In this document: positions 17,781-52,011 of the stretch, in pieces
How the letters are laid out: each line of letters begins with the position of its first letter
How positions within the stretch are numbered: the first letter of the stretch is position 1
DNA from: Terriglobia bacterium
GTDB taxonomy: Bacteria > Acidobacteriota > Terriglobia > 20CM-2-55-15
Assembly (NCBI GenBank): GCA_965247425.1
Contig: OZ252023.1
Location: 1,242,917-1,306,916 of the forward strand
Reading direction: 5' to 3'
DNA length: 64,000 nucleotides
Notes under the pieces: model-generated
The model's database searches: none
What the model was told of the DNA's origin: nothing
Seen by the model: the letters and a program-made list of their open reading frames with translations, nothing else
Translations under genes and position numbers: made by a program

Positions 17781-18051
17781 GCAGCCTGTGGCGGGACTCT
17801 TGAGGGTCGCGCGCAGGGGGATTCGGGTTTCAGGCGCGAAGAGAGGAGCGGAGCGATGCTTTGTCATCGTGACCGACGAACGACAAAGCCTGAGACCCGA
17901 AGACCCCTGCGCCCGACGGGTTACGACGGCATCGGGTCATCTGCGGCGTTGCCACTCATCATCGATGGGTAGCATCGACGTCGTCGTGGCGCCGGATATC
18001 TGGCCCGATGACGCTCGTAACGCGACCCTCGAGAGTTCCGCCACAGGCTGC
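17781..18051. repeat. MITE-like element family 1, copy A (271 bp, roughly 31-bp terminal inverted repeats gcagcc(t/c)gtgg...gggtcgcg)
   Basis: Starts immediately after the histidine-kinase stop codon and ends 25 nt before the response-regulator start. About 85% identical to the copies at 49206-49520 and 51740-52011. Confidence 0.8.
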
Positions 18052-18075
18052 TAATAAATGGAGGAAGAGAAGCCA

Positions 18076-18756
18076 ATGCAGAAAGTTCTTGTTGTCGAAG
18101 ACGAGCCCGACATGATCCTGGGATTGAAGGACAACCTGGAGTACGAGGGATACGACGTGGACATTGCGAGCGACGGAGAGGCAGGTATCGAGCGGGCGAG
18201 TTCGGGCCGGCCGGACCTGATTCTGCTCGACGTGATGCTTCCCAAAATGAGTGGGCTGGATGTGTGCCGGAGCCTTCGAACCCAGGGTGCGGACATGCCG
18301 ATCATCATGTTGACCGCTCGCAGCCAGGAGGTGGATACCGTCGTGGGTCTGGAAGTGGGTGCGGACGACTATGTCACGAAGCCATTCAGTATCAAGGAAT
18401 TGCTGGCGCGCGTTCGAGCTCATTTGCGCCGTCGGTCGAATCAGGTGATCGAGGTCGACAACTACTCGTTCGGCGACGTCCGGCTGTTCTTCAAGAAGCA
18501 TCAAGCGTCGAAAGCGGGCGTGCCGATCGATCTGTCTCCACGCGAATTCGACATGATGAAGTACTTCATCCAGCGCAAGGGAGAAGCCATCACCCGTGAT
18601 GAGCTGTTGAACGACGTCTGGGGCTACACAAATTTTCCGCTGACACGTACCGTGGACAATCATGTTGCGAAGCTGCGCCAGAAGATCGAAGACGTTCCAT
18701 CGGAGCCGAAGCATGTGATCACCGTCCATCGGGTGGGTTACAAGTTCGTCGAATAA
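18076..18756 (+). CDS. OmpR/PhoB-family winged-helix response regulator
   Basis: Receiver domain (VLVVEDEPD...LILLDVMLP...) and a C-terminal trans_reg_C domain (VDNHVAKLRQKIE...ITVHRVGYKF). ATG 18076 is preceded by a ggagg SD. Confidence 0.85.
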   Translation: MQKVLVVEDEPDMILGLKDNLEYEGYDVDIASDGEAGIERASSGRPDLILLDVMLPKMSGLDVCRSLRTQGADMPIIMLTARSQEVDTVVGLEVGADDYVTKPFSIKELLARVRAHLRRRSNQVIEVDNYSFGDVRLFFKKHQASKAGVPIDLSPREFDMMKYFIQRKGEAITRDELLNDVWGYTNFPLTRTVDNHVAKLRQKIEDVPSEPKHVITVHRVGYKFVE

Positions 18757-18771
18757 ACCGAGGTGAACACC

Positions 18772-19410
18772 ATGTCCAACTTGAACCGCACCCTTGTTGC
18801 GACGATGTTGCTGGTCGGTCTATCACTTGTTGTCATCGGGCAGAGTGCGAGAGATCGGAACCGCGACCGCTGGCAGCGTCCTGACGAGGTCATGGACGAG
18901 TTGGGTCTCGAATCGGGCAGTGCTGTTGCCGACATCGGTGCCGGTCGCGGCTATTTTACTTACAAGTTTGCGGAGCGGGTCGGCCCGGCGGGCCGGGTGT
19001 ACGCCGTCGACATTCAGCAGGAACGGCTCGATCAGATCCGTCGTGGGTTGTCCCAACGGGGTTTTCGGAACGTGGAACTGATTCACGGCGAGCCGGACGA
19101 CCCCGGTCTGGCTCCAGACTCCGTGGAAGCCATTTTGATCGTCAACGCTTATCACGAGATGCGCGATTTTGATGAGATGCTGCAGGCGATGCACCAGGCC
19201 CTGAAACCCGGAGGCGTGCTCGGGATCATTGACGCGGAGGCGACCGAAGGACGACAACGCAGCCGATATCAGCGCGATCACGAGATTCCCGAATCACTCA
19301 TCAAGGAAGATGCCGCACGGAACGGCTTCGACTTTCTACGGAAAGGTAAAGGCTTCGTTTCAAGCGGTGACGACTGGTATTTTCTGATCTTCGAGGCACT
19401 CTCCCCTTGA
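18772..19410 (+). CDS. Class I SAM-dependent methyltransferase with an N-terminal signal or anchor sequence
   Basis: Motif I VADIGAGRGYFT. ATG 18772 with SD aggtg. Hydrophobic N-terminus LVATMLLVGLSLVVIG. Confidence 0.7.
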   Translation: MSNLNRTLVATMLLVGLSLVVIGQSARDRNRDRWQRPDEVMDELGLESGSAVADIGAGRGYFTYKFAERVGPAGRVYAVDIQQERLDQIRRGLSQRGFRNVELIHGEPDDPGLAPDSVEAILIVNAYHEMRDFDEMLQAMHQALKPGGVLGIIDAEATEGRQRSRYQRDHEIPESLIKEDAARNGFDFLRKGKGFVSSGDDWYFLIFEALSP

Positions 19411-19602
19411 CCGGTTTCGCTCCGCCAATCCCACAAATGAACACGAGCATCCGCTCGCTGGTCGCCCCCTGAACTCATAAGGCCCAACACAGCAATAATT
19501 TACGTCCTGTTGGGAATTGGTCCGAGACTTGCGCCTCTAAGCTAGGAGTCAGCGCTGCAGACAAGTATGACTTCCTGGCCATCCAAAAGGGGACTGAAGA
19601 AC

Positions 19603-22020
19603 ATGATCGATTTGCTCCAGGACATCCGATACAGCCTTCGCGTACTCGCCGCCAGGCCCGGTTTCACCCTGGTCGCGGTCCTGACTCTCGCACTGGGAAT
19701 AGGCGCGAACACTGCGATTTTCAGCGTGATCAACACGGTCCTGCTTCAACCGTTGCCCTTCTCCGAGCCCGACCGCTTGACCCTCATGTGGACCATGACC
19801 GAGGAAGATCCGGAGTCGGCGGTATCCTGGCTGGACTTCGTTGATTGGAAAGATCAGAGCGAGGCGTACGAGGCCATGGCGGTGTACCGCCGCGAGAATC
19901 CACCCTGACAGGTGTCGGAGTCGCCGAAAGGCTGCTCGGAGCCAAGGTGTCGGCTGGCTTCTTCGGGCTCCTTGGCCAGTCGATCGAGCTCGGGCGACCC
20001 TTCACGGCCGGAGAAGACGAGGATGGTGCCGAGAGGGTCACGGTGATCAGCCACAGTGTCTGGCAGACCCGTTTCGGCGGAGCCGCCGACGTCATTGGCC
20101 GTTCGATCGGGCTGAACGGGGAGCCGACTACAGTGGTGGGCGTCTTGCCGGTGGGCTTTCGTTTCCCCGCGGACCTGGGTGACACGGAGATCTGGACGAC
20201 AATGGCCGGGGATTCGTTCAAAACGGAACGTGGAACCCGGACCCTCCGAGCCGTGGGCCGATTGAAGGCCGACGTCTCGATCGAACAGGCTCAGGCCGAG
20301 ATGGATGAGATTGCGGGGCGACTGGAGGAGGTTTACGAAGGAAAGGTCGGACGGGGCATTTATGTTGTGGGTTTGCATGACCAGTTGGTGAGCGACTCCC
20401 GGCCCGCGTTGTTGATCCTGTTTGCGGCCGTGGGAGCCGTCCTTCTGATCGCATGCGCCAACCTGGCCAACTTGCTTCTGGCGAGAGGCGCGGACCGGCA
20501 ACGCGAATTCTCGGTTCGGGCGGCACTTGGCGCGGGTCGCTGGAGAATTGCCCGCCAGTTGCTCACCGAGAGTACGGCGATCGGCCTGATGGGAGGAGGG
20601 TTGGCTCTCCTGTTCGCACTCTGGGGCCTGGACGGGCTACAGGCCATGATTCCCGAGGAACTCGTCGCGGTTGGGAACCTCCAACTCGATCGAACCGTCC
20701 TGGGTTTCGCTCTTGGCCTGTCCCTGGCGACGGGACTGATCTTTGGTTTGTTGCCTGCGCTGGCCGCTGCGAATCCCGATCTGATTCAAGGACTGAAGGA
20801 AGGAATTCGCGGGACGGATGGACGCTCCCGTACTCGTTTGCGCAGTGTCCTGGTGGTTGCCGAAGTCAGCATGGCGGCTGTCCTTCTGGTCGGCGCGGGC
20901 TTGCTCCTGCGTAGCTTCTGGGTTCTGACATCGGTGGAACCCGGCTTTGATCCGAACAATGCGCTGACCTTCCAGATGTCCATGCCCTTTGCCCTCGACA
21001 CCATCAATGACGAGCGAGCGGGCTTTTACGACGAGGTTTTGGCCACCATCGGGGAGATTTCAGGCGTGGAGTCGGCCGCGGCCATCACGATCCTTCCAAT
21101 GGAAGGCGGCGAAATCGGCGCCGGTCTGGAAATCGTCGGCCGGCCGGTTCCGGCCGGTGATCGTCCATCGGTCCGATACAATTCGGTCACACCCGGCTAC
21201 TTCGGAACGATGCGAATACCTCTGGTACGGGTACGTGACTTCGAAGGGAGCGACTCCCGCGGCCGACCCGGTGTCGCGGTGATCAACCGTGCCCTGGCCG
21301 ATCGATTCTGGCCCGACGGGGATCCGATTGGTGAGACTCTGGATCCGGCGATTTCCTTCGACCTCGAGGGCGAACCGGAAGTATTCGAAGTGGTGGGCAT
21401 CGTCGAGAACGTCCACGAAAGGGACCTGGCTTCGGAAGCTCGGCCGCAGATGTATTTTTCATACCGGCAGCACACCTTCCCGTTCATGAGCTTTGTCGTT
21501 CGGACCCAGACGGACGCGGCGTCGTTGATCGGTCCAATCCGGGACGCCGTGGGAACGGTGGACATGGACCAACCGATTTTCGACATCCGGACGATGGACG
21601 AATACCTGGCCCGGACGATGACTTCGCGCCGCTATCCGATGATCCTGCTTGGCATGTTCGCAGGCCTCGCGCTGCTGCTGGCGCTGGTCGGTATTTACGG
21701 GGTGATCTCTTACTCGGTCGGGCAGAAGACGCATGAGATCGGGATTCGCATGGCGTTGGGTGCGGCCCGGCGCGACATCCTGACGCTGGTTCTCGCCGAA
21801 GGCCTGCGCCTGGCGCTTGCAGGAGTCGGCATCGGCGTCGTTTTGGCGCTGGGACTCACCCGGTTCCTGTCCAGCCTGCTGTTTGGCGTCGGCGCAACGG
21901 ATCCGGTGGCGTTCACCGGCGTGCCGGTCATCCTGGCGGTCGTGGCTCTGATCGCGTGTCTGGTCCCGGCGATTCGGGCCGTTGGCGTCGAGCCGATGGT
22001 TTCTCTCAGAAACGAAATAG
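19603..22020 (+). CDS. ADOP-family (acidobacterial duplicated orphan permease, MacB/FtsX-like) permease, unit A; frameshifted near the 5' end
   Basis: N-terminal [41 protein letters not shown]. Frame shifts at about nt 19890 (..YRRENPP* then ..[12 protein letters not shown]); restoring one C in a cc run gives ENPTLTG. The C-terminus ...PMVSLRNE is typical; an extra A at about 22019 removes the natural TAG. Confidence 0.75.
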
Positions 22021-22041
22021 GGATCAATCAAGGAGCAGCCG

Positions 22042-24443
22042 GTGGGTTTCATACAGGACATCGATACGGTCTCCGCGTTCTGGCTGCCCGTCAGGCTTTT
22101 ACGCTGGTGGTGGCGCTGACGCTCGGTCTTGGCATCGGGGCCAACACCGCGATCTTCAGTCTGGTCAATGGGCTCTGGCTGCAACCGCTCGAGTATGAAG
22201 ATCCGGACGAATTGGTTCACCTGTGGAAGATTCGCACCGAAGGCGGCCTGGAAAGTACGACTCGATTTTCCGAGCGTGACTTCTATGAATGGCGTAGCCG
22301 GAACCAGTCGTTCGAAGACCTCGGCGTCTACGATTTCACGAGCGTGAACCTGACCGGCCTGGACGAACCCGAGAGGATCCGGGCCGCGCGGGTCTCAGTC
22401 GGTTTCCTTCGCGCACTGGGCGTCAGGCCGGCCATCGGCCGGCTGTTTCTTCAGGAAGAGGAAATGCCCACCTCAAATCGAGTCGTGATCTTGTCTGACG
22501 CGTTCTGGCAGAGTCGATTCGGATCGGACGAGAGCGTTCTAGGCCAGGAAATTACTTTAAGTCAAGCCCCTCACACCGTAATCGGTGTTCTATCGGCCAA
22601 TTTCGACTTCGCCGGTCAGGATGTGGGCCTCTGGCTTCCGATCCTGATGGATCCAGCAGCCCTCGGAGTCGGCCAGCGTTTGCGTGCCGTTGGACGGCTC
22701 AAGGACGGCGTGTCGATCCAGGAGGCCGAGGCCGACATGCAAACGCTCGCCGGCCCTATTGCGGAGCTGTTCCCTGAGACGAATACCGACTGGACCATCA
22801 TGCTCGTGCCGCTCTACGACGAGATCGTGCGCGAGGCTCGGGCCCCGTCGTTGATGCTGCTCGGGGCTGTCGGTTTCGTCTTGTTGATCGCCTGCGTGAA
22901 CGTCGCCAACCTGATGCTGGCGCGGGGGGCGACCCGGCGGCAGGAGATCGCGGTCCGTGCCGCTCTGGGCGCAGGACGTGGACGGCTGATCCGACAGGTG
23001 TTGACCGAGAGCAGCCTGATCGGCCTGCTCGGTGGCGCCGTGGGTTTCATCTGGGCCTTGTGGGCCGTCGACTTCATGGTCGCCGCTCTCCCGGCCGGGA
23101 CACCGAGACTCGACGAAGTCCGAATTGATTTCACGGTCTTCATGTTCACTCTTGGACTGTCTCTGGCGACGAGCCTCTTCTTTGGCATGGTACCGGCGCT
23201 GCAGTCTTCGCGAACAGGGCTGACTGATTCTCTCAAGAACGGGCAGTCGCGGATGGTGAGCCCGGACAAGCATCGCTTCCTGCGCGTTCTGATCGTGGCC
23301 GAGGTTGCCCTGGCCCTGGTCCTGCTCGTCGGCGCCGGCTTGATGACTCGCAGCCTGATTACCCTACTCCGGGTCGATCCCGGATTCGACGTCGAGAATA
23401 CGATGGCCATGGAGATCTCCCTGCCGCAAGCCTCCTATCCCGATGGGGCGTCCTGGAGACAGTTCTTTGGGCAATTGCAGGAACGAGTCGAGAATATTGC
23501 GGGGGTGTCATCGGCAGGCCTGGTCCAGTTTATTCCCCTTGGGTCGAGCTGGAGCACTGCGTCCTTTGTCATCGAAGGACGTCCCGCGCCTGTAATGAAC
23601 GACAGGCCTTCGGCGATCATCAACAGAGTCAGCTCTGGATACTTCGACACGTTGCAGGTCCCGCTTCTTCGCGGCCGACTCTTCGACGCGCGCGACAACG
23701 AGGACGCCGAGGCCGTGATGATCATCAGCAACAACCTCGCCCAGCGTTTCTGGCCTGATCAGGACCCCATCGGAGAAAGGATCGAATTTGGGGGCACGGG
23801 AATGCCGATGACGGTGATTGGCGTTGTGGGCGACGTGCATGCCCGGGGAATCGACAGAGATTCGCCGATGGTCACTTATGATCATTTGCGTCAGTTGCCT
23901 TTTCCCAGGATTGTTCTTACCGCTCGCTCGAACATGGACTCTGCCGGGCTGGCTTCGGTCATGCGTCGCGAAGTCCTGGCACTCGATCCGGATCAATCTG
24001 TCTTCAACGTTCGGACGATGGGAGACCTGCGCGAGCAAGACTTGATGGGCGCGCGACTGATCGTCAACCTGGTTGCGGGCTTTGCCGTGCTGGCGCTGGT
24101 TCTGGCCGTGGTCGGCTTCTATGGCGTCCTGTCTTATATCAACGCCCAACGTTTCCGCGAAGTCGGTGTCCGCGTGGCCCTTGGAGCGCACCGTCGCGAC
24201 ATACTCCGGTTGCTGATCGGCGAGGGACTGCGGTTGACGTCGATCGGCGTCGGTATCGGGTTGGTCGGTGCTTTCGGCCTCGGCCGACTTCTGGTCAGCC
24301 TGCTGTTTGGAGTCAGTCCGACCGACCTGGTCACCTTCATTGGCCTTCCGATTCTGATGATCACCGTCGCATTCCTGGCCAGCTACCTCGCGGCCCGCCG
24401 AGCCACACGATTGGACCCCATGGTCGTCCTCCGAGCCGACTGA
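22042..24443 (+). CDS. ADOP-family permease, unit B (tandem paralog); apparent in-frame fusion to unit A is probably an artefact
   Basis: SD AAGGAG then GTG 22042 reads VGFIQDI(R)YGLRVLAARQAFTLVVALTL only if one C is restored in atc(c)gatac at about 22068. As given, the frame continues from unit A, giving the 1532-aa ORF in the track. C-terminus ...DPMVVLRAD*. Confidence 0.7.
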
Positions 24444-24468
24444 TTGGCGATTCCAGGTAGGGAGTCGT

Positions 24469-24638
24469 CAACGCAAGGACGCAAAGAACGCGAAGTGTGA
24501 TTCTCCTACCTTGCTACGTGGCCTGCGTTTTCGCCGCATTGAAACGACAACCTGCGCATGGCAGGAAGGCACAGGCCAATCGGACATCTCCAAAGACAAA
24601 AGACTCTGGCCCTCTGCGTCTTTGCGCCTTTGCGTTGA
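24469..24638. repeat. REP/MITE-like palindromic element, family 3, copy 2
   Basis: Arms caacgcaaggacgcaaagaacgcgaag ... ctctgcgtctttgcgcctttgcgttgaa flank about 115 bp. The element begins 26 nt after the unit-B stop. Confidence 0.6.
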
Positions 24639-24654
24639 AAAAAATGTGTCAGTT

Positions 24655-25722: not shown

Positions 25723-25844
25723 AACAACTCCTGGCGAACCATGGAGCGTGTCTCTTCCTCACGGATTGACCGACAAAGGGGATTCGGACTACCATCCGCT
25801 TTCCGATATTCCCCGGAGTTGGACTTCCGAAAGGGACACGCGTC

Positions 25845-26255
25845 ATGTTTGAAACCAGAATACAGACCTATTGGGCGGATTCCGATGCCGCTGGCATCGC
25901 TTACTTCTCACATTTTTTTCGATTCGTAGAGTCTGCTGAAGAAGATCTCTTCCGCGCGGCCGGCTCGGACCGGCAACTCGTTCTGGATGAGCAACAGGTT
26001 TGGTTGCCGCGAGTGGAGTCGTTTGCGAAGTTCCGGAAACCGATCAAGGTCGGTAGCGCGATTCTTGTGCGCCTCCACGCGGAGTTCCAAGGCTCGAAGA
26101 CCGTCAAGTGCCGTTTCGAGATCTTCGAAGCGGAACAGCGCGAACTACTGGCGGAAGGATACGTCACCGTCGTCTGTGTCAGTCGCAGTGGGTTCAAGGG
26201 CATCCCGATGCCTCGGCCGATCCGGCGGGTATTCGAGACGGCCAACCTTTCCTGA
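25845..26255 (+). CDS. Acyl-CoA thioesterase, hotdog fold (YbgC / 4HBT family)
   Basis: 136 aa with a 4HBT-like pattern (YWADSDAAGIAYFSHFFRFVESAEEDLFRAAG). Confidence 0.7.
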   Translation: MFETRIQTYWADSDAAGIAYFSHFFRFVESAEEDLFRAAGSDRQLVLDEQQVWLPRVESFAKFRKPIKVGSAILVRLHAEFQGSKTVKCRFEIFEAEQRELLAEGYVTVVCVSRSGFKGIPMPRPIRRVFETANLS

Positions 26256-27582: not shown

Positions 27583-27627
27583 CCGGCTGTCAGGCGTTTC
27601 TGCTCTACGGCAATCATGACGCGAAAG

Positions 27628-32391: not shown

Positions 32392-32426
32392 CCTGTTGTC
32401 CTCCATGACAAGTGAGAATTCCTCAG

Positions 32427-32459
32427 TGCTTATCCTACGGGGACACCCGAAATGTAAAG
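32427..32459 (-). promoter_or_regulatory. Conserved 34-nt upstream motif (copy 1), coding-strand CTTTACAnnnnGGRTGTCCCCGTAGGATAARCAC, about 30 nt upstream of the small-peptide start
   Basis: 28 of 34 nt are identical to the motif at 34111-34144. It contains a TTTACA (-35-like) and a GGATAA segment, so it could be a promoter or a 5'-UTR element. Confidence 0.5.
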
Positions 32460-32739
32460 GGATTTTCTGATAAACATACGGATTGTATACAAATAGGAGC
32501 GAGCGGTAACGACTTGGAAAACCGGCGGATTAAATGGGAAAGGGCCAACTTCTCGCTGCATTCACTTAGCCATGGCTTCCATGAATGCGCCAAGTTGGTT
32601 ATCGGCCAAACCCTCGATCGTTAGGTTCTTTTTCAATGTCTGGCCAGACTGCGGGTTGCCCCACATTCCGCCCGGACATCGTGCCGTTAATCGACTTGGT
32701 TGCGGTCAATCGACCCCTTCCACGAAAGAGATAATGCGC

Positions 32740-32957: not shown

Positions 32958-33587
32958 ATGCGACATGCTCTGATCGGTCTGGCAATGACGACGATCTGTG
33001 GTCCCTTCCTGTCGTCCGCGATGGCACAGGAGGAGACCTCAAACCCAGAGTACGAATACCGCGTCCTGGCGACAAATAAGACCTCGACGATGCAGAGGGA
33101 ATTGAATCAGGCGGCAAGATTCGGATTTCGCCTGGAGTCGGTCATGGGCGGTCAAACTTCCTTCGGAGGAGACGAGACCGTCGTAGTGATGTCCAGACCG
33201 CAGCAGATGTCGGCCGATGCGCGTTACGATTACCGGCTGCTGGCCACGTCCAAGACTTCGACGATGCAGAAAGAGCTACAGGAAGCAGGTGACGAAGGCT
33301 TTGAATACGTTGGGCAGACGGTTTTTAAAACAGCTTTTGGCGGTAAGGAGGTCGTCGTGATCCTGGAGCGGGACCCCGAGGCCGCCTCGGTGCGATATGA
33401 GTACAAGCTCCTGGCCACATCCAGAACGTCGACGATGGAAAAGGAACTGTCCGATCCCAGACTGAATGGATTTGCTCTGGTCGGTTTGACCGTTGCCAAG
33501 ACGAAATTTGGCCTTGGAAAATCGGAACTGGTGACGATACTTCGCCGGCCGGTACCGGAGGCGAAGTCCCTCGCGAACAATCATTAA
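32958..33587 (+). CDS. Secreted protein with three tandem repeats of about 55 aa ([18 protein letters not shown]...GF...G...FGG.E.VV...R)
   Basis: Signal peptide [23 protein letters not shown]. The three repeats are seen directly in the translation. Confidence 0.6.
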
Positions 33588-34073: not shown

Positions 34074-34110
34074 CCGAGTGTCATCCTTGACAAGTAGCTT
34101 CCGTGTCTCG

Positions 34111-34144
34111 GTGTTTATCCTACGGGGACATCCTATCTGTAAAG
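34111..34144 (-). promoter_or_regulatory. Conserved 34-nt upstream motif (copy 2), upstream of the degenerate leader copy and paralog 2
   Basis: gtgtttatcctacggggacatcctatctgtaaag versus gtgcttatcctacggggacacccgaaatgtaaag at 32427. Confidence 0.5.
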
Positions 34145-34274
34145 TCATTTCTGTCGATCGCCAGCCAGGTGTGCGATCATGGTGTTCTTTCCGAACTCAA
34201 ATCGCCAATCCCAAGCCCCGGTCTGGCCCGGAGGCCGGCCAGTGCATTCGAACATCTATCAGTGGAGAGCCTCA

Positions 34275-37200
34275 ATGAACTTCCGTCACAGATACTCCAT
34301 CGTCTTTCCGGCCTTGCTCGGCCTGGTATTTCTCGTCGCTGGTCTCAGCGCGGACCCGGTGGTCCCGACACGGCAATCCGTCGCCGAGGAGATGGAGGAC
34401 GACAAGGACGAGGATGAGGTTCCTCTCCCGATCGAAGACGCCCGCCGGCTTACCTACACCGCGGATGAAGTGTCCTGGATGTCGGTGGACGTCAGCCCGG
34501 ACGGGGAAACAGTCGTTTTCGACCTGCTCGGCGACCTCTACACGATGCCGATGTCCGGTGGCGCGGCAACGCGACTGACCGACGGCATGGCCTTTGACGG
34601 CCAGCCTCGCTTCAGCCCGGACGGAAGCGAGGTGGTCTTTACGTCGGACGGCAACGGCGGTGAGAACCTCTGGATCATCAATCTCGAGAGCAATGAAAGC
34701 CGCGCTGTGACCGAGGCGAAGAGCCACCGGTACCAGTCCCCGGAGTGGACGCCCGATGGCGACTACATCGTGGTGTCGCGGGCCGGCGTGCGTACGGGCA
34801 ACCATAAGCTTTGGATGTTTCACAAGGACGGGGGCTCGGGCGTCCAACTGGTCAAAGAACCGGACAATTTGAAGACGATCGGGCCGGCGTTCGGTTCCGA
34901 TTCCCGCTACATCTGGTATTCCCAGCGCACCGGGGACTGGCAGTACAACGCAATATTTCCGCAGTACCAGTTGGCGGTTTATGACCGCGACTCCGGGAAA
35001 AGACTGACGAAATCTTCCCGATTCGGTTCCGCGTTCCGGCCGACGCTTTCCTCCGATGGGCGATGGCTTGTTTACGGAACCAGGCACGATGCGCAAACCG
35101 GGTTGCGCCTGCGCGACCTGGAAACAGGTGAAGAACGATGGCTGGCCTACCCCGTCCAGCGCGACGACCAGGAGTCCCGGGCGACGCGGGATGTCCTTCC
35201 GGGCATGTCTTTCACTCCCGATTCCACGGAACTGGTGGTTTCCTACGGTGGAAAGCTATGGGCGCTTCCCGTCAACGGCACAGCGGCACGCGCGATTCAG
35301 TTCACCGCCGACGTCGACATCGGGATCGGTCCAGAACTGGACTTCGATTATCCGGTCGACAGCGCTCCGACGTTTGTGACTCGGCAGATTCGTGATGCCG
35401 TCCCGTCACCGGACGGCGAGCAACTGGCCTTCGTCTCGATGGATCGGTTGTATGTGATGGAGTATCCGAACGGAACTCCGCGCCGCTTGACCGACATGGA
35501 CGTTGTCGAAGCGCAGCCCGCCTGGTCTCCCGACGGTGGTGCCCTGGTCTATTCCATCTGGTCGACCGATGGCGGGCATCTGTATCGGGTCGCGGTGAAC
35601 CCACCCGCCGCCCCAGAGCGCCTGACCGGGATCGCGGGACTCTATAGACAGCCCGCCTGGTCGTCCAACGGCGACAGGATAGCCTTCATCCAGGACACTT
35701 CACAGGCCTTCCGGGACAACACGGGATCCAGAATTTCCGGGGCCACCGCGGAGCTGGCCTGGATCCCCGCAGGCGGTGGAGAAGCGACCCTCATCGGTCC
35801 GGCTGAGGGAAGAAGCGCACCCCACTTTACGAGCGACGCGGATCGGATCCACCTCTACAGTTCCAGCAAGGGTCTGATTTCAATCCGATGGGACGGAACC
35901 GACGAACGCGAGCACATCAAGGTGACCGGCGTGAAGCCGCCGGACGCAGAGGATGCCCCCGCGGCTTCGCTCACCTTGATGAGTCCGGACGGCAAACAGG
36001 CCCTTGCCGAGGTGAACAACGAGCTCTACGTGGTGACCGTGCCATACGTCGGAGGGGACACGCCCACCGTTTCGGTTTCCGACCCGGAGAAGGCTGCTTT
36101 TCCGGCGACGAAGCTGACCCAGATTGGAGGACAGTTCCCGGTCTGGAGCCCGGACGGTACCCGGGTGCAGTGGTCGATCGGAAATGCGCATGTCGTTTAC
36201 GATCTGGGCGATGCGAAGGAGTTTGAAGTCCAGCAGGCTGCCGATCAGGAAGCCGAAGAGGAAGGGGACGCCGCCGCAGATGGAGACGAGGAGGAGGCCA
36301 GGTACGAACCAGAGGAAACACGCATCCTGATCGAGACCCGGCGGGACATTCCCGAGGGTGTCGCCGTTCTTCGTGGAGCGCGTGTGATCACCATGCGCGA
36401 TGACGAAGTCATCGAAAACGCGGATGTGGTGGTTCGCAACAATCGAATCGAAGCGGTCGGAGTCCAGGGGAGTCTTGACGTGCCTGATGGAGCCCGAATC
36501 ATCGATGTCGACGGCAAGACGATCATGCCCGGCCTGGTCGACACCCATGCCCACATGTGGCCCAACTGGGAGATCCACAAGTCCCAGGCCTGGATGTATG
36601 CCGCGAACCTGGCCTACGGCGTGACGACGACTCGAGATCCTCAGACTGCGACAACGGACGTTCTGAGTTACGGCGACCACGTCGAAGCCGGCAACATGCT
36701 GGGCCCCCGGATCTATTCAACGGGCCCGGGCGTGTTCTGGAACGACCAGGTCCAGGATCTGGATCACGCCCGGCGAATCATGCAGCGCTACAGCAAGTAC
36801 TACGACACGAAGACGATCAAGATGTACGTGGCGGGGAACCGGCAGCAACGCCAATGGATTCTGATGGCGGCCCGCGAGCAGGAACTGATGCCGACAACCG
36901 AGGGCTCGTTGAACCTGAAGCTGAACATGACCGAGTTCATCGACGGCTACCCCGGTCAGGAACATTCCTTGCCGATTTTCCCGCTCTACAGCGATCTCGC
37001 AAAGCTGGTCGCCGCCTCACGGACGGTTTACACCCCGACACTCCTGGTCGCGTATGGCGGCCCCTGGGCCGAGAACTACTTCTACACCCGGGAGCAGCCA
37101 CACAACGATCCCAAGCTCGCTCATTTTACGCCTCACGAGGAACTGGACCGCAGGACCCGGCGCCGAGGCCAGGGAGCCGGCCCGGGCCCGGGTGGCTGGT

Positions 37201-37643
37201 TTATGGACGAGGAGCATGTTTTTAGTGGGTTGGCGGCATTTGTCCGAGATCTCGTGGCCGAAGGGGGCCGCGCGGGTATCGGCAGCCACGGCCAACTTCA
37301 GGGTCTGGGTTATCACTGGGAACTGTGGGCGATGCAATCGGGTGGACTGTCCAACCACGCCGCGCTGCATCTGGCTACGGACGTGGGCGCCGACGCTATC
37401 GGCCTGGACAACGACCTGGGCTCGATCCAGGCCGGCATGCTGGCGGACCTGGTCGTGCTGGACGCCAATCCCCTCGACGATATCCGGAACAGCAACACCG
37501 TTCGATACGTGATGAAGAACGGTCGGCTGTACGAAGGCGACACGCTCGATGAGATCTATCCCCGGAATCGGTCGGCAGCGCCATTCTGGTGGCAGATGGA
37601 GAAGTCTCCCGACGGCGTGCCCGGGTTGGGGTCGGACCGCTAG
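34275..37643 (+). CDS. Secreted TolB-like beta-propeller (PD40 repeats) fused to an amidohydrolase-family domain
   Basis: Signal peptide MNFRHRYSIVFPALLGLVFLVAGLSA. PD40-type repeats (RFSPDGSEVVFTSD...). C-terminal metal-dependent hydrolase motifs (MPGLVDTHAHMW..., GSHGQ). Confidence 0.75.
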   Translation: MNFRHRYSIVFPALLGLVFLVAGLSADPVVPTRQSVAEEMEDDKDEDEVPLPIEDARRLTYTADEVSWMSVDVSPDGETVVFDLLGDLYTMPMSGGAATRLTDGMAFDGQPRFSPDGSEVVFTSDGNGGENLWIINLESNESRAVTEAKSHRYQSPEWTPDGDYIVVSRAGVRTGNHKLWMFHKDGGSGVQLVKEPDNLKTIGPAFGSDSRYIWYSQRTGDWQYNAIFPQYQLAVYDRDSGKRLTKSSRFGSAFRPTLSSDGRWLVYGTRHDAQTGLRLRDLETGEERWLAYPVQRDDQESRATRDVLPGMSFTPDSTELVVSYGGKLWALPVNGTAARAIQFTADVDIGIGPELDFDYPVDSAPTFVTRQIRDAVPSPDGEQLAFVSMDRLYVMEYPNGTPRRLTDMDVVEAQPAWSPDGGALVYSIWSTDGGHLYRVAVNPPAAPERLTGIAGLYRQPAWSSNGDRIAFIQDTSQAFRDNTGSRISGATAELAWIPAGGGEATLIGPAEGRSAPHFTSDADRIHLYSSSKGLISIRWDGTDEREHIKVTGVKPPDAEDAPAASLTLMSPDGKQALAEVNNELYVVTVPYVGGDTPTVSVSDPEKAAFPATKLTQIGGQFPVWSPDGTRVQWSIGNAHVVYDLGDAKEFEVQQAADQEAEEEGDAAADGDEEEARYEPEETRILIETRRDIPEGVAVLRGARVITMRDDEVIENADVVVRNNRIEAVGVQGSLDVPDGARIIDVDGKTIMPGLVDTHAHMWPNWEIHKSQAWMYAANLAYGVTTTRDPQTATTDVLSYGDHVEAGNMLGPRIYSTGPGVFWNDQVQDLDHARRIMQRYSKYYDTKTIKMYVAGNRQQRQWILMAAREQELMPTTEGSLNLKLNMTEFIDGYPGQEHSLPIFPLYSDLAKLVAASRTVYTPTLLVAYGGPWAENYFYTREQPHNDPKLAHFTPHEELDRRTRRRGQGAGPGPGGWFMDEEHVFSGLAAFVRDLVAEGGRAGIGSHGQLQGLGYHWELWAMQSGGLSNHAALHLATDVGADAIGLDNDLGSIQAGMLADLVVLDANPLDDIRNSNTVRYVMKNGRLYEGDTLDEIYPRNRSAAPFWWQMEKSPDGVPGLGSDR

Positions 37644-45248: not shown

Positions 45249-45610
45249 GCGGAGCAGCTTTCCGCGACGAAGCGGGAAGCAGCATGAATGAGATCAGGAG
45301 GGATCTCAAGATCCTTTCGTTTGACTCTTCTTTGGCTGATCAGCTGCCGCGGCTCGCTCCCTCATTGCTTTCCGAAGTTCGCGGATATGTTCTCTCATCC
45401 GAAACTTTGCCTTTCGCAGACGGTTATGACGCGACTTATCACCATTTCTTTGGGACATTGTTACCTCACAAGACAAAATAGGGTCGGGGCCACATTTCTA
45501 CTAACTGATCATAATACACGACTTGACCGAAATGTGCGCCCGTCCCTGTTTTCTGGCGTGGTGATCCGGGGAATACAAGACCGCATGGCTCGGGCTTCCG
45601 AGACCCCCTA

Positions 45611-45772
45611 GGAGCCTGCGCGGCAGAAGGGATCGTAGCGAGAAAGTGGAGAATCGAGGCCAGATTTTCTCGATTTTGAGGCGAATAGTGGTTCTATGTA
45701 ACGAAAAATCGGGGAAATATGGACCGATTATGCCGCTTTCGCAGTAGATCTCTTCTGCCGCGCAGGCTCCTA
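45611..45772. repeat. MITE-like element family 2 (perfect 24-26-bp terminal inverted repeats (ta)GGAGCCTGCGCGGCAGAAGGGATC / GATCTCTTCTGCCGCGCAGGCTCC(ta))
   Basis: Inverted repeats at 45611-45634 and 45747-45770 seen directly. The right end abuts the glgC stop codon. Confidence 0.7.
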
Positions 45773-47002
45773 ATCCAGGACGGTTCCCTTGGCGATCACG
45801 ACGATGCCGTCGTCGGAAATGGTGAAACCGCGCTCGAGGTCTTCCTTGTAGTCGATGCCAATCTCGTAGCTTTCCGGGATGCGGACGTTCTTGTCGATCA
45901 CGGCGCGGTGCACTACTGCGTGGCGGCCGACCTCGACATTGTCGAACAGCACGCAGTCCTCGACCTCGGAGAAGGAGTTGAGCCGCACCCGCGGTCCCAG
46001 GATCGACCGCCGCGCCGTGCCACCGGAGACGACCACGCCTCCCGCCACTAGCGACGCCAGGGCCCGGCCGCGGCGTTCCCCTTCCTCGTGGACGAACTTG
46101 GCCGGCGGATGGGGGTACTGCCAGGTGAGGATCGGCCACTCGTAGTTGTAAAGGTCGAAGACCGGCTGGGCAGCCACCAGGTCCATCGACGCTTGAAAGT
46201 AAGCGTCGATCGTCCCGACATCGCGCCAGTAGTCGCGTTCGCGTTCGACCTGACCCGGCACCTCGTTCTTCCCTAAGTCGTAGACCCAGGCGTCGCCCGA
46301 GTCGACGAGAGTCGGGATGATGTTCGCGCCCATGTCGTGCTTCGTATCCTCGGCGGCGTCCGCGGTCACCACTTCGCGCAGAATGTCGGTGCTGAAGACA
46401 TAGTTGCCCATCGAGGCGAAGGCCCGCGTCGGATCGCCGGGCAACGGCGTCGGCGATTCGGGCTTCTCGACAAAGGAGCGCATGCGCCCGTCCGCGGTGG
46501 CTTCGATGATGCCGAAGGAACTGGCTTCCTCAATCGGTACCGGAATGCCGGCGACTGTGACCCCGGCACCGCTCTCGATGTGCTGGAGGACCATCGGCTC
46601 GACGTCCATGCGGTAGATGTGGTCGGCGCCGAAGACCGCGACGTATTCGGGCTGCTCGTCGTCGATGATGTTGAGGTTCTGGTAGACGGCGTCGGCCGAG
46701 CCGGCAAACCAGTGGCGTCCGGTGCGCATCTGCGCCGGCACCGTGACGACATAGTAGCCGAGCAGTGGCGAGAGCCTCCAGGTCTTCTCCATGTGGAGGT
46801 CGAGGCTGTGGCTCCGATACTGGGTCAAGACTACGATGCGCCGTATGCCCGAGTTGACAAGGTTCGAAAGCGCGAAGTCGACGAGGCGATACAGGCCGCC
46901 AAAAGGCACGGCCGGTTTGGCCCGCTCCTGGGTGAGCGGCAACAGCCGACTGCCCTCACCGCCGGCCAGCACCATGGCGAGAATTTTCTCGCGTAAGGGC
47001 AT
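45770..47002 (-). CDS. glgC: Glucose-1-phosphate adenylyltransferase
   Basis: MPLREKILAMVLAGGEGSRLLPLTQERAKPAVPFGG...; 410 aa. Confidence 0.9.
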   Translation of the reverse strand: MPLREKILAMVLAGGEGSRLLPLTQERAKPAVPFGGLYRLVDFALSNLVNSGIRRIVVLTQYRSHSLDLHMEKTWRLSPLLGYYVVTVPAQMRTGRHWFAGSADAVYQNLNIIDDEQPEYVAVFGADHIYRMDVEPMVLQHIESGAGVTVAGIPVPIEEASSFGIIEATADGRMRSFVEKPESPTPLPGDPTRAFASMGNYVFSTDILREVVTADAAEDTKHDMGANIIPTLVDSGDAWVYDLGKNEVPGQVERERDYWRDVGTIDAYFQASMDLVAAQPVFDLYNYEWPILTWQYPHPPAKFVHEEGERRGRALASLVAGGVVVSGGTARRSILGPRVRLNSFSEVEDCVLFDNVEVGRHAVVHRAVIDKNVRIPESYEIGIDYKEDLERGFTISDDGIVVIAKGTVLD

Positions 47003-47130
47003 TCCTCTTCCTCTACGGTTGTCGGTATCCGTCCCGGGGATCCGGTTTCATAACCCCCGGAATGCTATCATACGCCCGTATCCACCGACTGACGAATCCA
47101 TCACCTAGCGAGTTGTGTCGCACTGAGGCA

Positions 47131-49206
47131 ATGAGACCGAAGCCCTTCAAAATCCGGTACGGCGAGCGGTTACCCGCGGGTGCAACAGGCGGCGTGGGCG
47201 GCGTCAATTTCTCCGTCTTCAGCCGGCACGCGAGCGCGATGTCCCTGCTACTGTATTCCGACGACCAGTCTCTCGATCCGATTCAGGTGATCGACCTGGA
47301 CCCTGTCGGAAACCGCACACACTTCTTCTGGCATGTCTTTGTCGAAGGAGCAGGTCCCGGCCTGTACTTTACCTGGCGGGCGGGCGGACCCGGTGACACT
47401 CGAGCGACCGGGTTTCGCTTTGACGCCCGACACGAGCTTCTGGATCCATGGGCCAGGGTCGTGAGCGACGCGCTGTGGAATCGGAGTCGAGCAACAGCCG
47501 GTGGAAGTGGCCGGAATGCCATTCGTGGCAAAGTCGACGACGACGCCTATGACTGGGAGGGGGACCTGACGGTGGACCACCCCGTCGAGGACAGCATAAT
47601 CTACGAAGTGCATGTGGGTGGTTTCACCAGCCATCCATCGGCCCGCGTCCGAAACCCGGGAACCTTCCACGCTCTGATCGACAAAATCCCCTACCTCGAA
47701 CGGTTGGGCATCACCGACGTCGAGTTGATGCCCGTCATGGCTTTCGATCGACAGGATGTGCCACCCGCCGCAGCGGCAAAAGGCCTCTCGAACTTCTGGG
47801 GTTACAGCCCCTACGGATTTTTCGCCCTCCATCCCGCCTACTGTTCCACCGCGGACGGTCGAAAGGAATTCCGCGACATGGTGAAAGCGCTGCACCGCGC
47901 CGGCATCGGTGTGATCCTGGACGTGGTGTTCAACCACACGGCTGAAGGGGGGGAGGATGGTCCCTCCATCCATTTCAAAGGCCTCGCCAACGAAACCTTC
48001 TATCACCTCGATTCCGGTGACCGGAGGAAGTATCGTGATTTCACGGGATGCGGCAACACGGTCAATTGCAATCATCCCGTGGTCACGCATTTTCTGTTGT
48101 CGTGTCTGGAATACTGGGTCCGGGAGATGCACGTGGACGGCTTCCGCTTCGATCTGGCGAGTGTGCTGGGACGGGGTGAGGACGGGGAGCCCATGTACCA
48201 TGCGCCGCTGATCTGGGCGATCGAGTTCTCCGAGGTACTATCCCACACCAAGCTGATCGCCGAGGCTTGGGACGCCGGAGGGCTTTACCAGGTCGGGGAC
48301 TTCCCTGGATTTCGCTTCATGGAATGGAATGGGCAATACCGGGACACTGTGCGGCGTGTCGTGCGTGGCGAGAACGGACTGATGAACGAACTCGCCTCCC
48401 GAGTGAGCGGGAGCAGCGATTACCACAAAGAAAAAGGCAAGCTTCCAACCAACAGCATCAACTATGTGACCTGCCATGATGGATTCACGCTCTACGACCT
48501 GGTCAGCTACGACAGGAAGCACAATCAGAACAACGGGGAAGACAATAGGGACGGACCCGCCGAATCCTTCAGTTGGAATTGTGGGCACGAGGGTCCCACC
48601 GACGATCCGCAAATCGAGTCGCTGCGTGGCCGTCAAGCACGGAACCATATGGCCATACTGCTCTTGAGCCTCGGCTTGCCGATGTTGCTGGCTGGCGATG
48701 AGGTTCTGAGGACCCAGCGTGGCAACAACAACTGTTACTGCCAGGATAACGAGTTGAGCTGGTTCGATTGGACGCCCACCGACAGTAACGCCGGCATGCT
48801 TCGCTTCACCCGGGAAATGATCGCCCTGCGCAAGCGGCACGCGTCTTTGCGACGGAGCCGATTCCTTACCGGTCGGCCGACTGCGGGAAGAGCCGGAATG
48901 CCGGACATCGAATGGCACGGAGCTCGACTCGGCGACCCGGAATGGGACAATCCCGAATCACGGATGCTGGCCTACACACTTGCCGGGATAGAACAGGACG
49001 AACCGGACATTTACGTGATGCTCAATATGTCACCCGAAGGCAGAGAGATGGCAATTCCCGCAGTCCCAGGGCGGAAATGGCATCGGGCCGTGGACACGTC
49101 GCGGATCTCGCCTGAGGACATCGTCGTGCCAGCGGAGCAGACGCCGTTAGGCTCGCATGCCTACTACGTCGCCGGGAGAACGGTCGCGGTCCTCGAATCG
49201 CGCTAG
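47131..49206 (+). CDS. glgX: Glycogen debranching enzyme (isoamylase, GH13)
   Basis: ...GVNFSVFSRHA..., GH13 catalytic blocks (GVILDVVFNHT, GFRFDLASVL, EAWD). ATG 47131 was chosen; the track ORF starts at 47062. Confidence 0.85.
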   Translation: MRPKPFKIRYGERLPAGATGGVGGVNFSVFSRHASAMSLLLYSDDQSLDPIQVIDLDPVGNRTHFFWHVFVEGAGPGLYFTWRAGGPGDTRATGFRFDARHELLDPWARVVSDALWNRSRATAGGSGRNAIRGKVDDDAYDWEGDLTVDHPVEDSIIYEVHVGGFTSHPSARVRNPGTFHALIDKIPYLERLGITDVELMPVMAFDRQDVPPAAAAKGLSNFWGYSPYGFFALHPAYCSTADGRKEFRDMVKALHRAGIGVILDVVFNHTAEGGEDGPSIHFKGLANETFYHLDSGDRRKYRDFTGCGNTVNCNHPVVTHFLLSCLEYWVREMHVDGFRFDLASVLGRGEDGEPMYHAPLIWAIEFSEVLSHTKLIAEAWDAGGLYQVGDFPGFRFMEWNGQYRDTVRRVVRGENGLMNELASRVSGSSDYHKEKGKLPTNSINYVTCHDGFTLYDLVSYDRKHNQNNGEDNRDGPAESFSWNCGHEGPTDDPQIESLRGRQARNHMAILLLSLGLPMLLAGDEVLRTQRGNNNCYCQDNELSWFDWTPTDSNAGMLRFTREMIALRKRHASLRRSRFLTGRPTAGRAGMPDIEWHGARLGDPEWDNPESRMLAYTLAGIEQDEPDIYVMLNMSPEGREMAIPAVPGRKWHRAVDTSRISPEDIVVPAEQTPLGSHAYYVAGRTVAVLESR

Positions 49207-49520
49207 CAGCCCGTGGTGGAAGTCTGTAGGGTCGCGCGCAGGGGTATTCGGGGCTCAGGCGCGAAATGAGGAGCGGAACGATGCATAGTCCTCGTGACCG
49301 ACGAATGACAAAGCCTGTGGCCCAAAGACCCCTGCGCCCTTCGGGTTACGACGGCATGGGGCCAGCTGCGGCGTTGGCACTCCTAGATCGATGGCGAGCA
49401 TCGCCGTCTTCGATGGGAACCATCGCCGTCTTCGATGGGCACATCGACGTCGTCGTGCCGCCTTGCATCTAGCCCCATGGCGCTCGTAACGCGACCCTAC
49501 CGACTTCCACCACGGGCTGC
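49206..49520. repeat. MITE-like element family 1, copy B (315 bp; contains an internal roughly 20-bp tandem duplication)
   Basis: Terminal inverted repeats gcagcccgtggtggaagtctgtagggtcgcg / cgcgaccctaccgacttccaccacgggctgc. It begins at the G of the glgX stop codon and ends 13 nt before the glgB stop. Confidence 0.8.
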
Positions 49521-49532
49521 TTGGAGCCTCGA

Positions 49533-51710
49533 TCATACTTTTTCCAGGATAATGCCGGCCAGGGGAGGTAGCGTCACCACAATCGAGTAGGGCTGATCCA
49601 TCGCGGGTTGGTCTTCCGCGGGCATCTCCGACGGGTTCCCCACGTCTGTCCCTCCGTAGAAACGGGAGTCGGAGTTGAAGATTTCCCGGTAGGCGCCCTT
49701 TTCTGGCACGCCAATCCGGTACCCGTGTCGCGGGATTGGCGTGAAGTTCAGGGCCACGCTCACACGATTCTCGTCCGCGCGGCGCAGGTAAATCAAGACC
49801 GAGTTATCCGCATCTTCCCAGTGTAACCACTGGAAACCCCGGGCGGCAAAATCGTACCGGAAGAGCGCCGGCCGGCTTCGGTATAGACCGTTGAGATCCT
49901 GGACGAGCCTATGAACGCCTCGGTGTGCGGGCACATCCAGCAGATGCCAAGGGGTGGTCTCGGCGCTGTTCCACTCGTCGGGCTGTGCCAACTCCGACCC
50001 CATAAAGAGAAGCTTCTTCCCCGGGTAGGTCCACTGAAAAGTATAGGTCAAGCGCAGGTTGGCGAAACGCTGCCAGTCGTCCCCAGGCATCTTGCCCAGG
50101 AGCGACTGCTTCATGTGCACGACTTCGTCGTGAGACAGCGGGAGCACAAAGTTTTCGCTGAAGGCATACATCGGGCCGAAAGTGATCTGCTGATGATGCT
50201 GCCGGCGATCGATCGGGTCTTTTGACATGTACAACAGCGTGTCGTGCATCCACCCCATGTTCCATTTCATACTGAAGCCGAGCCCGCCGGCGTGGGTCGG
50301 CTTCGTCACCCCCGGCCACGCCGTCGACTCCTCGGCGATGGTGAAGCTGCCGGGGACCTGCCCGTGTGTCACCTCGTTCAGCTGTTTTAAGAAAGCGATC
50401 GCCTCCAGGTTCTCGTTCCCGCCGTGGACATTCGGCATCCACTCGCCTTCCTGGCGGGAGTAATCCAGATACAACATGGCTGAGACGGCGTCCACGCGAA
50501 GCCCGTCGAAGTGAAAGTCCTCGATCCAGTACAAGGCACTGGAGATGAGGAAACTTCTCACTTCGTTCCTGCCGTGGTTGAAGATCAGCGTACCCCATTC
50601 TTTATGCTCGCCCTTCCGTGGATCCGCGTGCTCGAACAGGGCGCTCCCGTCGAAGCGGGCGAGACCGTGCTCGTCGCGCGGAAAGTGTCCCGGGACCCAG
50701 TCGAGGATCACACCGATTCCGTTGCGATGCAGCGCGTCGATGAGATGGCGGAGGTCGTCGGGTTCGCCAAAACGACGCGTGGGTGCGAAGTAACCCGTCG
50801 TCTGGTAACCCCACGATTCGTCAAGAGGATGCTCGGTCACCGGCAGCAACTCGACGTGGGTAAACCCGAGTTCGCGCACATAAGGGACCAGCTGCTCGGC
50901 CATCTCCCGGTAGGTCAGGACTCCTCCAGCCGAAGTTCGTCTCCAGGAACCCAGATGTACTTCATAGATCGACATCGCTCGGTGCATCCAATCCTGCCGC
51001 ACCCGCTCGTCGATCCAGGCCGTGTCGCCCCACGCGTAAGTTGTGCTTCGAGTCGTGACGGATGCCGTTGCCGGCCGATACTCGTGCTTTTGGGCGAACG
51101 GATCGAACTTGATCCGAACCGATCCGGTGGACCGGTTGCGGATCTCGTACTTGTAGAGTTGTTCGGGGGCAAGCCCTGGGATGAACAGTTCCCAGACTCC
51201 CGAGCGGTTCCGAACCCGCATCGGATGACAACGGCCGTCCCAGTTGTTGAAGTCCCCGATGACGCTCACGCGTTCGGATTCAGGCGCCCAGACCGCAAAA
51301 AGGAAGCCGTCCACACCATCGACCGCTTGTCCATGTGCCCCAAGGAACCGATGCGCGCGAAAGTGATCCCCGCGACCGAACGACTCCAGGTCCGCGTCCG
51401 AGAGCTGCGGGCAGAAGGCGTAGGGGTCGAAGCGTTCGATCACCTTTCCGTCGATCCGCCATCGGATACGGTACGGGAGCGGGAGGGATTCTTCCGCGCC
51501 GCGCCACTCGAACAGATCGCCGTTCTCGAGGCGCCGCATCGGCTCGCCCGTTTCAACGATTTCGGCCTCGTGGACTCCGGGGAGGAACGCGCGAACGACG
51601 ACGCCGTCATCTCCCAATGGGTGTCGTCCCAACACCCGGAAAGGATCGTCGAGGCGACCCTCCAGGAGACGCGCTTTGTCGGACGGATCGATTTCGGTAC
51701 CGCTCTTCAT
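49533..51710 (-). CDS. glgB: 1,4-alpha-glucan branching enzyme
   Basis: 725 aa with a GH13_9 pattern ([23 protein letters not shown], ...). Confidence 0.9.
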
Positions 51711-51739
51711 AACCTCAACATGCTATCAAAATAGGCCTA

Positions 51740-52011
51740 GCAGCCCGTGGTGGAAGTCTGTAGGGTCGCGTTATGAGCGCCATGGGGCTAGATGCCAGGC
51801 GCCACGACGAAGTCGATGCTCTTCATCGATCTAGGAGTGGCAACGCCGCAGCTGGCCCCATGCCGTCGTAACCCGTAGGGCGCAGGGGTCTTCGGGCCAC
51901 AGGCTTTGTCATTCGTCGGTCACTATGACAGAGCATCGTTCCGCTCCTCATTTCGCGCCTGAGACCCGAATACCCCTGCGCGCGACCCTACAGACTTCCA
52001 CCACGGGCTGC
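51740..52011. repeat. MITE-like element family 1, copy C (272 bp), in inverted orientation relative to copy B
   Basis: Reverse complement of copy B with a few substitutions. Together with copy B it flanks glgB. Confidence 0.8.

Follow-up and report, generated by a model that had tools for sequence, protein, structure and literature searches.

This report concerns a repeated element, called family 1 below, which occurs three times in a 64,000-nucleotide stretch of a Terriglobia bacterium genome (contig OZ252023.1, positions 1,242,917 to 1,306,916 of the forward strand; hereafter "the window"). We believe, with a probability of roughly 80%, that it is a high-copy, non-coding miniature inverted-repeat transposable element (MITE) of soil Acidobacteria which uses a transposase of the IS5/IS1182 type and targets CTAG. 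An earlier sequence-only reading of the window had described three related repeats with inverted ends. All three are present at positions matching that description to within one base; their terminal inverted repeat (TIR), AGCAGCC...GGCTGCT, is 32 nt long, so that the arms given earlier were one base short on each side. The copies and their parts are as follows.

17780-18052, plus strand: copy A, 273 nt, of a divergent TIR subfamily (AGCAGCCTGTGGCGG...), between the kinase stop and the ribosome-binding site of the regulator
17780-17811, plus strand: left TIR of copy A, differing at about 5 positions from the arms of copies B and C, the differences being mirrored in the right arm
18021-18052, plus strand: right TIR of copy A, its last 10 nt being ACAGGCTGCT
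49205-49521, plus strand: copy B, 317 nt, between the convergent stops of glgX and glgB
49388-49455, plus strand: expanded apex of hairpin 2 of copy B, a 22-nt unit (mini-hairpin CGATG-N5-CATCG) present 3.1 times
51739-52012, minus strand: copy C, 274 nt, in the most frequent size class and in the opposite orientation to copies A and B, in the divergent spacer between glgB and malQ
51739-51770, plus strand: TIR of copy C on the glgB side, a perfect 32-nt arm
51981-52012, plus strand: TIR of copy C on the malQ side, a perfect 32-nt arm directly abutting an 88-bp repeat of the F2 type

The two arms pair perfectly in copy C, with one mismatch in copy B and with two G.T pairs in copy A. A 31-mer of the TIR is found four times in the window at up to three mismatches (0.00 expected from shuffles); the arms of copy A differ from it at more than three positions. 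Copy A is 85.8% identical to copy C over 274 nt (repeat search, three-way alignment). Copy B is 81% identical to copy C overall and 93% identical outside a 43-nt insertion, which corresponds to the repeated 22-nt unit.

The location of the copies at gene ends, as proposed earlier, is supported by the Pfam assignment of the neighbours and by the stop codons themselves. To the left of copy A lies a histidine kinase gene (16164-17780) and to the right a gene of an OmpR-type regulator (open reading frame (ORF) 18058-18756; likely start at 18076, judging by the 226-aa homologue P0001). Copy B is preceded by the isoamylase/GlgX gene (47062-49206); glgB (49533-51710, minus strand) lies between copies B and C, malQ (52111-53613) beyond copy C, and GlgC is encoded further left in the cluster. 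Copy C ends 28 nt upstream of the glgB start codon. The kinase stop straddles the element boundary: its TA belongs to the gene and the first base of copy A completes TAA. Similarly, the first two bases (AG) of copy B complete the TAG stop of glgX. The opposite orientation of copies B and C around glgB holds as described, and there is indeed no transposase with matching ends within the window.

The sequence-only reading had proposed that copies be counted genome-wide, that an autonomous element with the same TIRs be sought and that strains be compared for occupancy. A genome collection scanned with a 23-nt internal pattern of the element gave at least 65 matching stretches. At least about 58 copies lie in a single 6.24-Mb chromosome (OZ253536.1, 'MAG: Terriglobia bacterium'), which shares 94.6-97.1% identity with the window across the glg region; the other matches listed belong to two further Terriglobia metagenome-assembled genomes (MAGs) and one Solibacteraceae MAG. 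The same pattern matched 45 metagenome contigs, many of the matches being at contig ends, and no viral contig. A sequence-similarity search with copy C returned nothing among phage and plasmid records. As far as searched, the family is confined to uncultured Terriglobia. Exact-protein look-ups of the GlgB of the window and of protein P0121 found neither on record, and a tRNA/tmRNA scan found nothing.

Each copy, on either strand, folds into a Y shape in which a 32-bp terminal stem closes two long hairpins; the fold energies are -164 to -184 kcal/mol and the z-scores -11 to -15. In an alignment of 46 full copies this framework is almost invariant, with 98.6% of the cells of the terminal helix paired. 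Copy lengths range from 245 to 317 nt. The four main size classes (266, 274, 283 and 288 nt) differ in the apex of hairpin 2 alone, which consists of one to three mini-hairpins CGATG-N5-CATCG with freely variable loops. The arm of the main subfamily contains GTAG, and those of the others TGAG, CGAG or GCAG. The element has no coding capacity, since the size classes differ by non-multiples of 3 and no ORF is conserved. With at least 58 copies in one related genome, the earlier description of a multi-copy, non-coding, TIR-bounded element is well founded.

The probable partner of the element was found from its ends. A scan for unpaired family-1 termini led to L031:2861-4344 in the same related genome (OZ253536.1), which is a 1484-bp insertion sequence (IS), here designated ISX, adjoining a family-1 copy. 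Its ends are AGCAGCCCGTGGCAGAAGT and AGCAGCCCGTGGTGCAAGTC, compared with the MITE terminus AGCAGCCCGTGGTGGAAGTC. Its 471-aa product contains the Pfam domains DUF772 and DDE_Tnp_1, both above their cut-offs; in NCBIfam it scores 148.6 bits with IS1182 (cut-off 270) and 88 bits with IS5_4 (cut-off 140). A second, partial copy of ISX (L003) likewise abuts a family-1 copy. A relative with 84% nucleotide identity (transposase P0243) is present in several metagenomes, and its ends, AGCAGCCCGTGGTGAAAGTCTG, are identical over 22 nt to a MITE variant; CT precedes it in 6 of 6 distinct left flanks and AG follows it in 5 of 5 distinct right flanks. Taking ISX and this relative together, the outer 19-22 nt of the MITE are matched. 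The autonomous element with matching ends is thus closest to the IS5/IS1182 type and is not of the IS630 type. Longer versions of family 1 (1.4-2.4 kb) were also considered as autonomous copies and rejected: all of them are family-1 copies split at internal CTAGs by unrelated ISs, which carry their own ends and duplications.

Among annotated proteins, the nearest relatives of the ISX transposase are about 50% identical and are located on sphingomonad plasmids, one of them being labelled 'IS5 family transposase'. Four copies of the plasmid IS, with ends CAGGCCGTTGACGAAGTC, are flanked by the 4-mers CTAA/CTAA, TTAA/TTAA, TTAG/TTAG and CTAA/CTAG. Such flanks are those of the classical IS5-type duplication, in which a YTAR target of 4 bp is doubled. 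Homology would make CAGCC...GGCTG the mobile core of family 1 and the bordering CTAGs the duplication. Site C, where unoccupied (L090-L092), reads GGCTC-CTAG-GCC with the CTAG intact; unoccupied site B reads CGCG-TTAG-ATTTCG in L090 and contains CTAG in closer relatives. Judged from these two sites, no bases are lost on insertion.

The position of the copies at gene ends is explained by the target. From its base composition the window would be expected to contain 232 CTAGs, but it has only 39 (observed/expected ratio 0.17), and many of the 39 are a C followed by a TAG stop codon; the depletion of the target and its frequent coincidence with a stop account for the gene-end positions. The boundary T-AG (or T-AA) is the stop of an ORF of at least 250 codons in 12 of the 46 copies, and others are no more than 30 nt from a gene end. 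Since the stop codon is restored when the element inserts into C-TAG, the host pays little. Among the palindromic tetranucleotides of the window, CTAG is depleted most relative to base composition; TTAA is the next (ratio 0.21), and GATC and TCGA are about 2.5-fold enriched. Several unrelated IS and MITE families of this lineage all target CTAG.

The flanks of the MITE copies are less regular than those of the ISs. The left 4-mer is conserved as C 78%, T 72%, A 98% and G 93%, and the right one as C 96%, T 98%, A 65% and G 83%; every distinct half-site beside the autonomous IS copies is perfect. No direct repeat of any length from 1 to 8 is consistent among the 46 copies under five boundary definitions. 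A hand tally of the flank listing gives 12, 11, 12 and 11 copies with CT only, AG only, both and neither, which is as expected under independence. Copies without private mutations sometimes also have imperfect flanks, and the correlation between copy age and flank decay is weak (rho -0.30, p 0.046). The young copy B is flanked by CAAG/CTAG, and orthologous copy C has three flank states in three lineages. MITEs of the F2 type share the variability, with 18 of the 36 ends in the loci examined being perfect. Possible causes are selection against CTAG, mutagenesis at the cruciform base, and errors made when the 4-nt gap is filled in its outer half.

Comparison of related genomes shows that occupancy differs at all three sites. 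At site A, nine related contigs (L066-L074) have 21 nt alone between kinase and regulator; the kinase there ends in ...GCC followed by ACAGGCTGCTAA, where ACAGGCTGCT is the last 10 nt of the element. The kinase end in the window, GCCGCTGACGGCTAA, matches that of an outgroup, GCCGCTAACGGCTAG, therefore the relatives carry a secondary deletion of copy A, of 271 bp between GCC repeats. The earlier suggestion that copy A had split an operon is not supported: copy A is the older state and the short spacer the derived one. After the deletion the kinase C-terminus reads ...ATGC in place of ...AADG before the stop. In L066-L074 (about 2460-2500, equivalent to 17770-18060 of the window) the last three codons and the stop, ACA GGC TGC TAA, are the MITE remnant plus its flank; a remnant of a mobile element is recruited as a gene end in these nine contigs. 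A strain 98.8% identical to the window (L081) retains copy A. In an outgroup (L079:1199-1250; regulator 89% identical), 49 nt separate the kinase stop (CTAG) from the ribosome-binding site of the regulator; this spacer begins with TGGTCCGTGGCGAAGGTC, which bears a loose resemblance to a family-1 arm and could be what is left of an earlier insertion there.

Copy B is absent from 13 of 13 related glg loci and was found in the window alone. In the 98.8% identical strain (L153:2790-2990, L154:4060-4260) an IS630-derived MITE of about 200 bp occupies the very CTAG of copy B, at the glgX stop, so different elements used this site independently. Copy B is therefore specific to its lineage and was inserted recently, into a hot site. 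The seemingly empty sites A and B of OZ253536.1 were rejected as pre-insertion states because site A keeps 10 nt of the element and site B a 38-nt F2-like piece; real unoccupied sites come from a more distant lineage. Site C is occupied by a 282/283-nt variant in nine related loci and empty in three (L090-L092). Between the window and the 98.8% identical strain the flanks of site C differ by 0.6-1.5% and the element by 8.1%; these changes are concentrated at the apex of hairpin 2 and turn the 283-nt class into the 274-nt class, which points to patchy exchange with other copies. The inversion of glgB, which the sequence-only reading considered possible, was not seen in 13 related loci: its orientation is identical in every relative examined, and no relative carries both B and C.

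Other ISs have inserted into 16 of about 62 copies, at internal CTAGs, and the MITE acts as a landing pad in a CTAG-poor genome. About one family-1 copy in four is split at one of two internal CTAGs (L004, L011, L014, L015, L017, L020, L024, L030, L039-L041, L043, L049, L056, L060 and L064 in OZ253536.1; also L084). One interrupter is a 1153-bp IS630-like element with a TA duplication and ends GTGGTCCCCGTCA..., found in both orientations; the other is a 1.73-kb IS1380-like element with a CTAG/TTAG duplication.

The alignment bears on whether the fold is maintained. Ten base pairs show double changes, a number reached in none of 500 shuffles; 9 of the 10 lie in the terminal stem, where the arms thus change together at 9 of 31 pairs, and the internal helices show 1 in 34 pairs. 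Some double changes are private to the single copies L033 and L065. The co-change of the arms fits either arm-to-arm correction in the hairpin or selection on propagating lineages. One-sided changes produce G.U and A.C pairs equally often (19 and 19) with no strand favoured, and the density of singletons is 0.37 per paired and 0.43 per unpaired column. Promoter and terminator scans found no promoter-like or terminator-like motif inside the elements. Given the equal numbers of G.U and A.C, the similar mutation of stems and loops, the split copies and the absence of such motifs, individual copies look neutral.

We propose the following course of events. The outer 20 nt or so would serve as recognition ends for a DDE transposase of the IS5/IS1182 type, which would be supplied in trans by the 1.48-kb ISX elsewhere in the genome. 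Integration would occur, by analogy with the homologous IS, into a YTAR tetranucleotide, here nearly always CTAG, which would be duplicated. With CTAG depleted about six-fold and the surviving sites often being C plus a TAG stop, insertions accumulate exactly at gene ends, and they are nearly harmless owing to the regenerated stop codon. Resident copies then decay neutrally, exchange patches, receive CTAG-seeking ISs and are occasionally lost by microhomology deletion. Effects on the neighbours are possible, namely read-through from kinase to regulator and a long structured 5' leader of glgB.

Several points weigh against this reading. Both NCBIfam scores are below the cut-offs, which makes the assignment to IS5/IS1182 approximate. 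The interior of the MITE is unrelated to ISX, i.e., the MITE is not its simple deletion derivative. The window contains no copy of ISX, which is known from the related genome and, as a variant 84% identical to it, from metagenomes; we presume from the identity of the ends that its transposase moves the MITE in trans. Identical 4-mers (CTAG, once TTAG) are present on both sides in just 13 of 46 MITE copies, and the outer two bases of the duplication are kept at 65-83%, whereas they are perfect beside the autonomous IS copies.

The sequence-only reading considered mobilisation by an IS630/Tc1-mariner element with duplication of TA, although it noted that the right junctions do not all show TA. 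The left junctions often read TA followed by GCAGCC, the target CTAG does contain TA, and the 1153-bp IS630-like IS (with its TA duplication at CTAG) and MITEs of the IS630 type are present in the same lineage. To that extent a target containing TA stands; a TA duplication does not, as TA is present on both sides in only 19 of 46 copies. The ends of the IS630-like IS of the related genome, GTGGTCCCCGTCAAACAG / GTGTAGTCCGTCACAG, are unrelated to those of family 1, which are matched by the IS5/IS1182-type IS over 19-22 nt, and the homologous IS makes duplications of 4 bp and not 2 bp. We attach very little credence to this mechanism. The same holds for a stem-loop-replacing insertion in the manner of IS1272/IS1182, in which a target hairpin such as a terminator would be partly deleted without duplication: in its favour, IS1182 is the NCBIfam family that the partner transposase resembles most, IS1272 inserts at hairpins located downstream of genes and makes no duplications (PMC5678879, PMC4923244), and family-1 copies lie at gene ends with the same sites reused. 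However, the unoccupied sites are plain CTAG or TTAG with no bases lost, the complementarity of the flanks (a residual-stem test for hairpin targeting) is at chance level, and the closest characterised homologue makes 4-bp duplications; we regard it as most improbable.

The lack of a consistent direct repeat of any length would also be expected for a REP/REPIN-like palindrome moved as folded single-stranded DNA, without target duplication, by a Y1 transposase (RAYT/TIRYT). The extreme fold and the joint changes of the arms, including those in single copies, agree with this, and Acidobacteria encode TIR-associated Y1 transposases (PMC3733652). It is nevertheless highly improbable, considering that a DDE-type IS has identical ends, that one subfamily carries TGAG, CGAG or GCAG in place of the GTAG of the arm, that the element is about 10 times the length of a REP, and that a model in which one side only carries the flank fails on the independent flank classes. 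No Y1 gene was seen beside any copy or within the interrupted and extended copies examined, in about 0.5 Mb of the related genome, though no dedicated Y1 search was made. That the sequence is kept as a functional structured RNA (for regulation, processing or stabilisation) and is not a selfish element is very unlikely as well. The Y fold is very stable, its stems are invariant with variable loops, and copies A and C would be transcribed along with their neighbours. Against this, Rfam gives no match in the window at the gathering threshold and just two chance-level hits around copy C at E up to 10; the G.U and A.C changes are balanced and private mutations equal in stems and loops; the internal helices are nearly without covariation; splitting by ISs of 1-2 kb is tolerated, occupancy varies between near-identical strains, and promoter-like or terminator-like motifs are lacking.

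The bacterial MITEs are among the closest known systems; background knowledge of the field and the overview by Di Nocera et al. (2013, PMC3733652) serve for this comparison. Correia/NEMIS (Neisseria), ERIC/YPAL (Yersinia), RUP (Streptococcus pneumoniae) and Nezha (cyanobacteria) are likewise small, non-coding and present in high copy number, with TIRs of 20-30 nt, an intergenic location often beside coding sequences, robust hairpins and a transposase acting in trans. Family 1 differs in its partner, which is of the IS5/IS1182 type and not IS630- or IS30-like, in the CTAG target with a presumed 4-bp duplication, and in its interior, which is a conserved three-way (Y) fold with a modular apex of variable length and not a simple hairpin. 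Among elements of the IS5 group, the unnamed IS on plasmid pLB1 (AB244976) encodes a DUF772 + DDE_Tnp_1 transposase 50% identical to that of ISX, and has similar ends (CAG[G/C]CCGT.G..GAAGTC) and flanking YTAR 4-mers. Unlike this group, family 1 has no transposase gene and its copies seldom retain a perfect duplication; the ISX transposase (465-471 aa) is longer than the classical IS5 InsH and falls below the NCBIfam IS5/IS1182 cut-offs.

IS1272/TnSha1 of the IS1182 family resembles family 1 in a distantly related transposase and in insertions downstream of genes, at sites hit repeatedly and in both orientations; the target of family 1, in contrast, is short (CTAG), nothing is deleted at the unoccupied sites examined and a homologue makes duplications. 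REP/REPIN sequences with RAYT and the TIR repeats with TIRYT (PMC3733652) are also palindromic, abundant, extragenic and reported in Acidobacteria. Compared with them, family 1 is ten-fold longer, has the ends of a DDE-type IS and no conserved GTAG tag, and has no Y1 gene in sight, within the limits mentioned above. Literature searches yielded nothing specific on a CTAG MITE derived from IS5 or IS1182. We conclude that this is a genuine, previously undescribed MITE family of an ordinary and well-known kind.

The window contains other repeats. A MITE of a second family, the F2 type (45611-45770, 160 bp, ends AGGAGCCTGCGCGGCAGAAGGGATC), is flanked by CTAG/CTAA, and its terminal G completes the TAG stop of glgC. 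It probably uses the same transposase as family 1, because AGGAGCC + GGCAGAAG in F2-type elements resemble the left end of ISX. The 88-bp F2-type variant abutting copy C (52013-52100) has another interior with an internal palindrome, TTTGCATGTTAGCAGCAACAGCTGCAAATG, and is kept in all relatives, including those without copy C. A MITE of a third family (9770-10042, about 270 bp) has a 26-nt TIR, GTGGTCCGCGCCAGATATAGCGGTAC, and is flanked by TA/TA inside CTAG/CTAG; the 1153-bp IS630-like IS of the related genome has similar ends, and the MITE shares the TAG stop of ORF 7467-9773. A 44-nt direct repeat, 82% identical (32422-32465 and 34107-34150), lies upstream of ORFs 32958-33587 and 34179-37643 and may be a shared regulatory or leader motif. 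Three pairs of direct repeats, D1-D3 (178-300 nt, 80-92% identity), at 6338-12000 indicate duplicated gene segments.

A further proposal concerns how the MITE is kept and mutated: this could take place via a folded cruciform or single-stranded form of the DNA. Four observations fit it. The arms co-change, including double changes private to single young copies; the three-way fold is invariant with a modular apex; the outer bases of the duplication are hypervariable beside the MITEs and not beside the autonomous ISs; and the rate of change in orthologous copies is about 8 times that of the flanking DNA. We consider the proposal unlikely. If it were true, these could reflect templated correction from arm to arm together with a mutagenic step confined to the junction, which would act during insertion or else at the cruciform base. 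To our knowledge, no IS5-type element has been described as having such a step.

As for the practical consequence, we advise that the element family be masked in the annotation of acidobacterial MAGs, as it breaks short-read assemblies, produces spurious ORFs and alters gene ends. For the biology of these bacteria, the family illustrates how an element can spread and yet restore stop codons by choosing CTAG, usually a stop codon where CTAG is scarce in the genome. The family-1 elements then become nests for further ISs, and their remnants can become the last codons of a host gene. The concepts of transposition are unchanged by these observations unless the hypervariability of the flanks proves to be mechanistic; this hypervariability and the co-evolution of the arms are the sole features that may lead somewhere new.

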